Assembly (NCBI RefSeq): GCF_046105845.1
Contig: NZ_CP151004.1
Direction: 5' to 3' (one strand)
DNA length: 64,000 nt
From: Escherichia coli
GTDB taxonomy: Bacteria > Pseudomonadota > Gammaproteobacteria > Enterobacterales > Enterobacteriaceae
Shown: positions 27,445 through 29,375 of the stretch, piece by piece
Numbering within the stretch: the stretch's first letter is position 1
Layout of the letters: every line of letters begins with the position of its first letter
Notes under the pieces: model-generated
The model's database searches: none
Seen by the model: only the letters and a program-made list of their open reading frames with translations
Told to the model about the DNA's origin: nothing
Position numbers and translations under genes: made by a program

Positions 27445-29375
27445 ACTGCTGGGAAATATTAGGTTTACAACCTGGCGCGGAAGAACGAGATATTAAGCGT
27501 CGTTATGCGCAACTGGTAAAAAATTGCCGCCCGGAAGATTCTCCCGAAGCCTGGCAACAATTGCACGATGCTTATGAACAGGCTTTACGTTATGACGACG
27601 AAGATCAGTGGCAAGAAGAGGAAGAAGAGCAACCGATCAATATATCCAGGGGTATTGTTCATCCTCGTCCTGTGATGACATTTCGCGCACTCAACACCTT
27701 TTCTGGTCATCCACTTCCTGATGTCACTATTAAATCAGAGGAGGAATTCACCTGGCAAGCCGTGCTGGATATGCTCTGTGAGGAGAATGAAGCAACCCCC
27801 GAACACGCCCCCATGCAACTTGCTAAGGCGTTATCTTTCCTTGAGAAAAAAGATCTCAGCTCACGAATGAGCTTTGAAGAAGCGTTATTACTGCATCTTC
27901 ATCGGGTATTCCGGCCATTATTAACTCTCGCTGCTGCACAAACGTTCAGATGGCATTTAGTTGCAGGCAGTCGTCAACCCGTAATCCAGACAGAAATTAA
28001 CGAAAGTTGTCTTCTTTATTATCGCATCGAAAAAGAAATTACCACTTTCTTTGCCAGTAACTTGTCTCCACTGGAAGAAATGGAAAACGGGAAGGAAATG
28101 GCTACGATTTATCAATCATTAAAGGATAATGAAGAGAGCCTGAAATGGTTTGATATCGCAGTATTAAATAAAATTGCTGAATTTGAACTGTCAGACAACT
28201 ATATGGCATTGTTAATAGAGCGTTTATCATATTCCTGGCGAAAAGAAAAAATGATTCGCAAGTGGAAATTAACAGAACGCTTCAATAATTTAGCAATGCA
28301 ACATCATAGTGGATATAAAAAGTTACTAAACGCCATAAAATTAAAAGGTCTTTTTTATTATCCATCTTTTGTATTCCAGTCCTGCTTACATGCTGCAGAG
28401 CAAGACTATTCACTTGCCTGGTATTCTCTTGGCAAAATGTATTACGAAGGTGATGAGGTTTCACAGGATCTAAAATTAGCCTTTAATTGGTTTAGCCGTG
28501 CCGCGCAGCATAATGTTATCGATGCTCAGTATGCGCTGGGCATCATGTATAGCGATGGAAGGGGCACGGATAAGAATATTAGCGAGGCACGAAAATGGTT
28601 ATTACTTGCTGCCCAAAATGGCAACGCATCTGCGCAATATGAGCTTGCCCGTATCTCACGCTTTGCTGTTGAGCCATTACGAAATTATGAAGAAGCATTA
28701 CAGTGGTATTTATCTGCCGCCACACAAGGACATGAACTTGCCCAGTATGAATTGGGACAAATGTATATACAAGGGATTGGCGTGGAGCGCGATGAGGTAC
28801 AGGCCCATCGTTGGTTTTTGCAATCGGCGGAACAGGACCATTCAGACGCACAATATCATACTGCCAGCTTGTATAGTGAAAGTGAGAGTATTCCACAAAA
28901 CCAGGAAAAAGCGCAGTACTGGTTTACCAGAGCTGCAAAAAATGGTTCCGGGGATGCCATGTATGAATTGGGTAAATATTATTTAACCAACAATGATGAT
29001 CCTGAAAATAATGCTGAGGCTATTCAATGGCTTACTGGTGCAGCGCAGCGTGGGAAAATAAAGGCGATATTTTTGTTAGCCGAAATGTATCTCTACGGTA
29101 CAAAAGATGTCGCAAAAGATGAAAATCATGCGCTGCACTGGTACGAAAAAGCGGCGCGTTTAGGGGCAACCGAAGCGCAACACCAGACTGCGGCAATGTA
29201 TGCTCAGGGGACAGGCACTAAAATTGATAATAAACAAGCATGGATGTGGCTAACAATTGCCGGAAATAACAACCCTTGGATTGAAAAAGATGCGTTGCGA
29301 TGCTTAATGTCGGAACAGGATATTCAGGATGCAGAACAAACGGCTGCAAATTGCAAACGTCTGCTAAGGATTTAA
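27441..29375 (+). CDS. J-domain-like / Sel1-repeat protein, DjlB/DjlC-like putative co-chaperone (accessory)
   Basis: 644 aa from the ATG overlapping the upstream stop (ATGA); alternative ATG at 27426; N-terminal J-like helix pattern (WEILGL...RRYAQLVK...) with RPE at the HPD position; about seven Sel1-like repeats C-terminally. Confidence 0.75.
   Translation: MNCWEILGLQPGAEERDIKRRYAQLVKNCRPEDSPEAWQQLHDAYEQALRYDDEDQWQEEEEEQPINISRGIVHPRPVMTFRALNTFSGHPLPDVTIKSEEEFTWQAVLDMLCEENEATPEHAPMQLAKALSFLEKKDLSSRMSFEEALLLHLHRVFRPLLTLAAAQTFRWHLVAGSRQPVIQTEINESCLLYYRIEKEITTFFASNLSPLEEMENGKEMATIYQSLKDNEESLKWFDIAVLNKIAEFELSDNYMALLIERLSYSWRKEKMIRKWKLTERFNNLAMQHHSGYKKLLNAIKLKGLFYYPSFVFQSCLHAAEQDYSLAWYSLGKMYYEGDEVSQDLKLAFNWFSRAAQHNVIDAQYALGIMYSDGRGTDKNISEARKWLLLAAQNGNASAQYELARISRFAVEPLRNYEEALQWYLSAATQGHELAQYELGQMYIQGIGVERDEVQAHRWFLQSAEQDHSDAQYHTASLYSESESIPQNQEKAQYWFTRAAKNGSGDAMYELGKYYLTNNDDPENNAEAIQWLTGAAQRGKIKAIFLLAEMYLYGTKDVAKDENHALHWYEKAARLGATEAQHQTAAMYAQGTGTKIDNKQAWMWLTIAGNNNPWIEKDALRCLMSEQDIQDAEQTAANCKRLLRI

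Follow-up and report, generated by a model that had tools for sequence, protein, structure and literature searches.

In a 64,000-nucleotide stretch of Escherichia coli DNA (contig NZ_CP151004.1 of RefSeq assembly GCF_046105845.1; hereafter the window, numbered from its first letter) we studied a gene whose product joins an N-terminal J-like domain to a C-terminal array of eight Sel1 repeats, and which overlaps the end of a gene for an HscC-type Hsp70. We read this J-Sel1 protein, with a probability of about 0.55, as a soluble and cytoplasmic dedicated partner of the Hsp70 encoded just upstream, with the Sel1 array as its variable module for binding. A preliminary description of the region had proposed an adaptor that delivers a specific substrate to its partner Hsp70. 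What speaks for that proposal is the J-type domain at the N-terminus, the overlap with the HscC-type Hsp70 gene, a gene order that recurs, and a head that is conserved while the tail varies; however, the catalytic His-Pro-Asp (HPD) triad is replaced by Arg-Pro-Glu (RPE), and the delivery of a substrate is something that we infer. The two genes and the parts of the J-Sel1 protein are as follows (residues counted from ATG 27441 unless stated; ORF, open reading frame; pLDDT, predicted local distance difference test).

25744 to 27444, plus strand: gene for the HscC-type Hsp70, 566 aa from ATG 25744, 43.6% identical to K-12 HscC
27441 to 29375, plus strand: gene for the J-like/Sel1 protein, most likely 644 aa from ATG 27441
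27441 to 27596, plus strand: J-like domain, residues 1–52, helices I–III only (Pfam DnaJ, PDB matches, AlphaFold2)
27528 to 27536, plus strand: Arg-Pro-Glu triad at the position of His-Pro-Asp (R30-P31-E32 in alignments A1 and A2)
27597 to 27743, plus strand: acidic disordered linker, residues 53–101 (pLDDT <50)
27744 to 28400, plus strand: family-specific all-alpha middle domain, residues ~102–320
28410 to 29276, plus strand: eight Sel1-like repeats, ORF residues 329–617 (324–612 from ATG 27441; Pfam, periodicity and model)
29277 to 29372, plus strand: C-terminal helical tail, residues 613–644 (AlphaFold2 helices)

The Sel1 array and the protein that carries it

The longest ORF of the J-Sel1 gene starts at 27426, and its homologues all begin MNCW, MSCW or MTCW, a start that falls at residue 6 of the long ORF. 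A GGGAG at 27428–27432 lies 8 nt 5′ of ATG 27441, and this ATG overlaps the stop codon of the Hsp70 gene (27442–27444) by 4 nt, in the form ATGA. Hence ATG 27441 is most likely the start codon and the protein 644 aa long, and the overlap indicates that Hsp70 and J-Sel1 are probably translated as a pair. Pfam (PF08238) finds eight Sel1 matches at ORF residues 333–615 (nucleotides 28422–29270), six of them at E ≤3e-4 and two weak, and the array can be laid out in register as eight 36-residue units (one of 37) with the consensus ..AQY.LG.MY..G......D...A..W...AA..G. along its length. Moreover, similarity autocorrelation has its maximum at a lag of 36 (z = 21.9 relative to 1000 shuffles), a peak that is missing from the N-terminal half of the protein. 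Both methods of repeat detection therefore find the Sel1 units that the preliminary description had placed in the C-terminal half, with eight units rather than its seven or so, and the three peptides it quoted are all present. In the AlphaFold2 model the units are predicted to fold as antiparallel helix pairs resembling solved Sel1-like repeat proteins, the best structural matches being secreted or effector Sel1 proteins. Across the family the number of repeats ranges from 8 to about 12.

The Sel1 repeats themselves are not new, because RefSeq already names this gene product ‘J domain-containing protein’ or ‘SEL1-like repeat protein’ (the former for the orthologue in strain 042, WP_000995915.1) and its neighbour ‘Hsp70 family protein’; taken alone, the array is an ordinary one that routine annotation finds. 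Once near-identical fragments of the E. coli family are set aside, the Sel1 part resembles only generic Sel1 proteins, at 24–40% identity, and thus the sequence offers no clue to the ligand. We also considered whether the array is a fused form of the K-12 Sel1 protein YbeQ, in the Rosetta-stone sense, and rejected this, since the 34% identity to YbeQ is not above the 24–40% seen with Sel1 proteins of unrelated organisms; what we retain is a thematic link only, in that Sel1 genes neighbour djlB and djlC.

Between the J-like domain and the array lie the acidic linker, which includes DDEDQWQEEEEEQ, and the middle domain, for which no Pfam match was found even at E 10 and no fold match. Two candidate relatives of the middle domain were tried and dropped: comparison by hhalign with the DUF1266 protein YnjI gave a probability of 0.2, and so did comparison with the corresponding region of DjlB, both being weak tests that used single-sequence templates. 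Behind the array, AlphaFold2 places helices at residues 616–620 and 625–642, and this tail is 100% identical to that of E. coli 042 and 25–38% identical to those of other lineages. No signal peptide, hydrophobic segment or transmembrane segment was predicted anywhere in the protein (maximum 19-residue hydropathy 1.2), and thus the J-Sel1 protein is predicted to be soluble and cytoplasmic.

The J-like domain and the neighbouring Hsp70

The label ‘J-like’ given to the N-terminal domain in the preliminary description was correct. Pfam DnaJ (PF00226) matches it at E 2e-4 with a weak score of 21.7 bits over model positions 2–51 of 63, and the J-domains of DNAJA2, DNAJA1 and DnaJ in the PDB match it at E 3.6e-4 to 0.02. 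AlphaFold2 predicts helices at residues 3–7, 15–26 and 35–50 (I–III) with pLDDT 86–91, and only a 4-residue helix at the position of helix IV. The domain is 34–35% identical to the J-domains of DjlB and DjlC and shares with them a short II–III loop. In helix II, the residues of the basic face (R16, K19, R20, R21 and K27) do not vary within the family. The His-Pro-Asp that marks a J-domain protein is absent, and the RPE that stands there is the counterpart, in the alignments, of HPD in DnaJ and DNAJA2 and of His-Pro-Glu (HPE) in DjlB and DjlC. Alignments A1 and A2 show no variation in R30-P31-E32 between lineages that share ~40% identity elsewhere. The deviation from HPD is conserved rather than degenerate. 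We also counted triads in 153 aligned sequences, comprising 149 library representatives, retrieved when 1.84 billion cluster representatives were searched exhaustively, together with the window protein, DjlB, DjlC and DnaJ. Arg-Pro-Asp (RPD) was found in 67, HPE in 33 (including DjlB and DjlC), RPE in 24 (including the window protein) and HPD in 2, one of which is DnaJ. HPE has been recorded before in DjlB and DjlC (PMC10410713). According to a 2026 review, ATPase stimulation is lost when H is changed to Q or D to N, HPE seems the only tolerated replacement, and the significance of other deviations is unknown (PMC13254874).

The mechanical list of ORFs begins the upstream Hsp70 at TTG 25729; homologues and RefSeq begin it at ATG 25744 (MIIGIDLG…). 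From this ATG the protein aligns with K-12 HscC over its full length (551 columns). The hallmarks of HscC given by Mayer are a length of 550–580 aa, a deletion corresponding to DnaK 76–101 and a small one near DnaK D211, an insertion in loop L1,2 of the substrate-binding beta domain, a shortened lid with a short tail, and intact ATPase residues (PMC8215388). In alignment A3 the window Hsp70 shows the deletion of the DnaK 76–101 region, a further 4-residue deletion near DnaK D211, an 8-residue insertion in loop L1,2, and a shortened lid without the long tail. It keeps the ATPase residues D8, K70, E171, D194, T199 and D201, retains an Arg at the position of DnaK R167, and scores below the NCBIfam cut-offs for DnaK and HscA. 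Judged by these features, which include every one of the hallmarks, the product of the upstream gene is an HscC-type Hsp70.

These parts can be put together as follows. Docking on the neighbouring HscC-type Hsp70 would fall to the short J-like domain, in which the basic helix II and the RPE loop are invariant. The flexible acidic linker would join this domain to the helical middle domain and the eight-unit Sel1 solenoid, and these would bind one or more specific protein partners, which may be clients for remodelling or may mark the site to which the Hsp70 is recruited.

Distribution, divergence and surroundings of the pair

The pair is present in 354 of 5426 complete E. coli genomes (~6.5%), including CFT073, clone D i14 and 042, and a related paralogue whose middle domain is 64% identical occurs in the uropathogenic strain 536. 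An Hsp70 gene followed by a J-Sel1 gene, with the 4-nt overlap and beside gdhA, was also found in an Escherichia-like genome (L005), a metagenome scaffold (L006), a 5.8-Mb enterobacterial genome (L007) and Klebsiella spallanzanii (L009), and the order Hsp70 then J-Sel1 recurs in every homologous locus examined. Two tandem J-Sel1 genes follow a single Hsp70 gene in K. spallanzanii (L009, 3964–8469) and in E. coli RIVM_C040348 (L032, 3001–6921), and K. huaxiensis has three family members in AFDB. Protein identities of the window to the loci L001, L005, L006 and L007 are:

TopB, to L001/L005/L006/L007: 99/97/90/90%
GdhA, to L001/L005/L006/L007: 99.6/94/91/91%
Hsp70, to L001/L005/L006/L007: 98/86/76/75%
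J-Sel1, to L001/L005/L006/L007: 93/41/38/40%

Between species the J-like domain is 65–75% identical, the linker 19–27%, the middle domain 40–49% and the Sel1 part 35–42%. Tandem copies within a genome have J-like domains that are 96% and 85% identical, with 44% and 40% in the remainder; J-like domains group by genome and tails group by lineage (Ksp_b and L006 share 72%), of which there are about six deep ones at ~40% identity. This combination of a conserved head that clusters by genome with a tail at ~40% fits a constant module for docking on the Hsp70 and a variable module for binding. In the tandem copies of E. coli L032 the N-terminal ~200 residues are nearly identical and the remainder ~44%. 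This similarity at their 5′ ends suggests gene conversion or strong constraint. The low identity between species may equally reflect differential loss of paralogues, because paralogues exist; for this reason we did not keep the idea of extreme divergence in situ, for which the 41% identity of J-Sel1 against 97% of TopB (L005) had been the starting point.

Over the shorter distance between the window and 042, the ratio of non-synonymous to synonymous substitution rates (dN/dS) is 0.29 for J-Sel1, 0.20 for the Hsp70 and 0.03 for topB and gdhA; no non-synonymous change falls in the J-like domain, the linker or the tail, and most changes fall in the Sel1 part. Moreover, about 90 positions do not change at all between lineages whose identity is otherwise ~40%. 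The J-Sel1 gene is constrained but fast-evolving. A word-indexed protein search with residues 1–326 returned only E. coli sequences, mostly truncated, and one unattributed 184-aa fragment, and an exhaustive search was required to recover the five other J-Sel1 lineages. Truncated database representatives are frequent (clusters P0001–P0005 and P0157, 178–539 aa), for example one of 364 aa with 29 members and partial ones of 278 aa with 83 and 178 aa with 234. The gene is interrupted by IS1 in one complete E. coli genome (H23), and Shigella boydii has a fragment only, and hence inactivated or fragmentary copies seem to be frequent.

The pair lies in the gene order selD-topB ... gdhA-ynjH-nudG-ynjF-ynjE-ynjD, within these surroundings:

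ending at 25299, plus strand: topB, the 5′ flank
25215 to 29430, strand not applicable: 4.2-kb segment not in E. coli K-12 (blastn of the window against K-12)
29431 to 30774, minus strand: gdhA, the 3′ flank

In blastn of the window against K-12, homology stops at 25214, inside the 3′ end of topB and ~85 nt before its stop codon (25214–25299), and restarts at 29431, at the end of gdhA. Because the break falls inside topB, strains with the pair encode a C-terminal tail of TopB that differs from that of K-12. Between the window and E. coli 042, TopB is 99.2% identical across all 648 residues, GdhA is 99.6% identical, and the DNA 96.8%. The K-12 counterpart of the segment is ynjI, which encodes a DUF1266 protein and is present in 3506 of the 5426 genomes. 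A scan of 25250–29500 for promoters and terminators gave fewer promoter-like sites than shuffled sequence, none of them convincing. The stretch 25383–25571 between topB and the Hsp70 gene contains a sequence, …cagtcacttacttatgtaagctcctcgggattcac…, that may resemble the enterobacterial ERIC/IRU intergenic repeat. Elsewhere in the window, the only Rfam match above its gathering score is the ES036 (CssrF) small RNA at 49738–49780 on the minus strand (38.9 bits against a threshold of 37.6), and at 12001–18000 the G+C content falls to 0.44–0.46 with marked GC skew relative to neighbouring sequence, the AT skew swinging to −0.147 at 16001–18000.

Nearest known systems and competing explanations

The closest known system is HscC with DjlB and DjlC. 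The two have in common a specialised Hsp70 of the GrpE-independent type, 550–580 aa long and with the same indels (43.6% identity), a partner whose N-terminal J-type domain belongs to the same subfamily (34–35%) and has a short II–III loop and a non-canonical triad, the possibility of more than one adaptor gene per Hsp70 (DjlB and DjlC there, tandem J-Sel1 genes here), and Sel1 proteins, which in K-12 are YbeQ and YbeT in the gene neighbourhood. They differ in that the triad is HPE there and RPE here, that the J-Sel1 protein has no C-terminal membrane anchor and an unrelated middle domain, that the Sel1 array is fused to the J-protein here and separately encoded there, that the Hsp70 gene comes before the J-protein gene here and overlaps it with no DUF1266 gene present, and that the pair sits at a different chromosomal locus in only a small part of E. 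coli genomes. The K-12 locus reads ybeQ(Sel1)-ybeR(DUF1266)-djlB-ybeT(Sel1)-ybeU(DUF1266)-djlC-hscC, and thus Sel1 and DUF1266 proteins recur around this kind of Hsp70 in E. coli. DUF1266 proteins also occupy the K-12 slot of the pair (YnjI) and the positions immediately upstream of djlB and djlC (YbeR and YbeU); no DUF1266 gene was seen near any J-Sel1 locus examined, and one DUF1266 gene of strain 042 has been reported to be strongly repressed by H-NS (PMC7582179). We regard the pair as a variant of the DjlB/DjlC-HscC kind. In our literature search, no paper connected HscC-type Hsp70s to Sel1 proteins, to YbeQ/YbeT or to DUF1266, and none dealt with the Hsp70/J-Sel1 pair or with RPE or RPD J-like domains, although the survey of bacterial J-proteins by Barriot et al. 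(2020) may list the architecture.

The wider subfamily contains further pairs of this kind. In Pseudomonas, genes for RPD J-like proteins of ~550 aa directly follow an Hsp70 gene, whose product is 51–54% identical to that of the window, in 9 of 18 sampled loci, and in Fournierella an HPE J-like gene follows an Hsp70 gene at 44%. Such ~550-aa RPD proteins are common in Pseudomonas (L010–L028), half of the sampled loci having no Hsp70 within 6 kb, and the library representatives P0046 and P0070, which resemble them, have multi-pass membrane regions. Membrane segments are predicted in 79 of the 86 subfamily representatives of at least 300 aa, the soluble Sel1-bearing proteins being the exception. 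Proteins that combine J-domains with tetratricopeptide repeats (TPRs), such as DNAJC3/p58IPK and DNAJC7, resemble the J-Sel1 protein in joining a J-type domain to a helical-repeat scaffold that supplies binding specificity. They have the canonical HPD and 34-residue TPRs and serve general Hsp70s, whereas the J-Sel1 protein has RPE and 36-residue Sel1 units and adds a family-specific domain and its own dedicated Hsp70. A J domain with TPR-type repeats is a recognised class C architecture (PMC10410713).

Several points weigh against a dedicated partner protein with a variable binding module. The His of HPD is Arg here, and even an H-to-Q change abolishes ATPase stimulation (PMC13254874); because of this replacement, stimulation by the RPE loop can only be inferred. 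Helix IV is missing from the J-like domain, which also scores weakly in Pfam; no ligand can be read from Sel1 relatives that stand at the same generic level as YbeQ; and gene conversion between tandem copies, not a shared partner, could explain why J-like domains of one genome have such high identity. Moreover, the literature yielded no experiment on J-like domains with RPE or RPD. A rival explanation is a pseudo-J (‘type IV’) protein, which would bind the Hsp70 without triggering ATP hydrolysis and act as recruiter, competitor or inhibitor, as Pam16 does towards Pam18. In another form of this rival, the Sel1 array might hold not a client but the C-terminal tail of the Hsp70 itself, in the way that TPR co-chaperones clamp EEVD. 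We consider this possible but rather unlikely, since R-P-[D/E] does not vary within the family, outnumbers every other state in the HscC-linked J-like subfamily (91 of 153 aligned sequences), and often occurs in genes directly after a dedicated Hsp70 gene, so that it resembles a signalling loop selected in co-evolution with a divergent Hsp70 and not a decayed one. The locus, moreover, encodes no second canonical J-protein to be regulated. Unlike Pam16 and DNAJB13, the J-Sel1 protein keeps the Pro and an acidic third residue, only the His being changed and always to Arg, and a large bacterial subfamily conserves this change, often in genes immediately 3′ of that for a dedicated Hsp70.

The pair might instead be a module for phage defence, inter-bacterial conflict or host interaction, with a diversifying Sel1 array as sensor of a foreign protein and the Hsp70 as the switch. 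Its patchy presence in E. coli, pathogens such as CFT073 and 042 included, the paralogue in strain 536, its place as one of the alternative occupants of a single chromosomal slot, the deep tail lineages with tandem paralogues and varying repeat number, the G+C content of ~45% in the segment against 49–55% in the flanks, and the fusion of Sel1 arrays in other organisms to TIR, protease and kinase domains all agree with such a role, which we nevertheless judge improbable. Effectors of the nuclease, toxin, TIR or protease type are missing from the locus, as are integrase and other mobility genes. In tblastn, residues 1–322 found no copy on 72,556 plasmids or in 50,697 phage records, and a mobile origin was set aside for that reason. 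The position beside gdhA is common to several genera, pointing to vertical descent with loss, and the overall dN/dS of 0.29 is not above 1. A known defence system was also sought and rejected: matches in PADLOC-DB 2.0 are no more than noise, being a spurious match to PtuA over 50 repeat residues and a marginal one to PDC-M61B (E 8e-4) over the actin-like ATPase fold, NCBIfam gives no specific family, and PHROGs gives only generic Sel1 and Hsp70 families. The described GTPase-Hsp70-GrpE conflict systems differ in composition from the pair (PMC7159879).

Two further explanations appear very improbable to us. An exported virulence or envelope factor of the Sel1 type, with the neighbouring Hsp70 incidental, would agree with the array's best structural matches and with the automatic naming of homologues as EsiB in UniProt. 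The solved relatives EsiB/c5321 (4bwr), LpnE (6deh), HcpC (1ouv) and SEL1L (5b26) are secreted, effector or endoplasmic reticulum-luminal proteins; unlike the J-Sel1 protein they have neither an N-terminal J-like domain nor its middle domain, and none was seen paired with an Hsp70 gene. The Klebsiella homologues A0A564MBH4 and A0A564H620 carry the automatic name ‘Secretory immunoglobulin A-binding protein EsiB’ in UniProt and AFDB, which probably reflects generic Sel1 similarity only and could mislead. Nor do we give much weight to a decaying accessory gene without current function. Many database clusters are indeed truncated (273–539 aa), some E. coli copies are interrupted by IS1, S. boydii retains a remnant, and most E. 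coli genomes lack the pair, but the window copy is intact with all its domains, and both the purifying selection seen against 042, with the J-like domain, linker and tail unchanged, and the invariant positions shared by distant lineages argue against decay.

We therefore return to a J-Sel1 protein that would serve the upstream HscC-type Hsp70, from which a bolder and more tentative proposal can be drawn. Arg-Pro-(Asp/Glu) may be a selected, working alternative to His-Pro-Asp in J-type domains that co-evolved with HscC-type Hsp70s, and the J-Sel1 proteins may form a birth-and-death family of interchangeable specificity adaptors. In addition to DnaK, HscA and HscC, some E. coli lineages, CFT073 and 042 among them, would then possess a fourth dedicated Hsp70 machine, whose target would change fast and might be foreign or specific to a niche. 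Reviews list these three Hsp70 systems for E. coli, and call it ‘enigmatic’ whether deviations other than HPE arise by accident or positive selection (PMC8215388, PMC13254874). The locus, an accessory fourth Hsp70 in well-studied pathogenic strains with an overlapping partner gene that carries an invariant RPE, is thus a natural test of whether non-HPD J-type domains work. If the RPE domain activates the Hsp70, the rule of J-domain signalling needs widening, and if it does not, the pair would illustrate cleanly, in bacteria, a pseudo-J protein of the recruiter type. Either way, the Sel1 array offers a handle for finding the clients of HscC-type chaperones.

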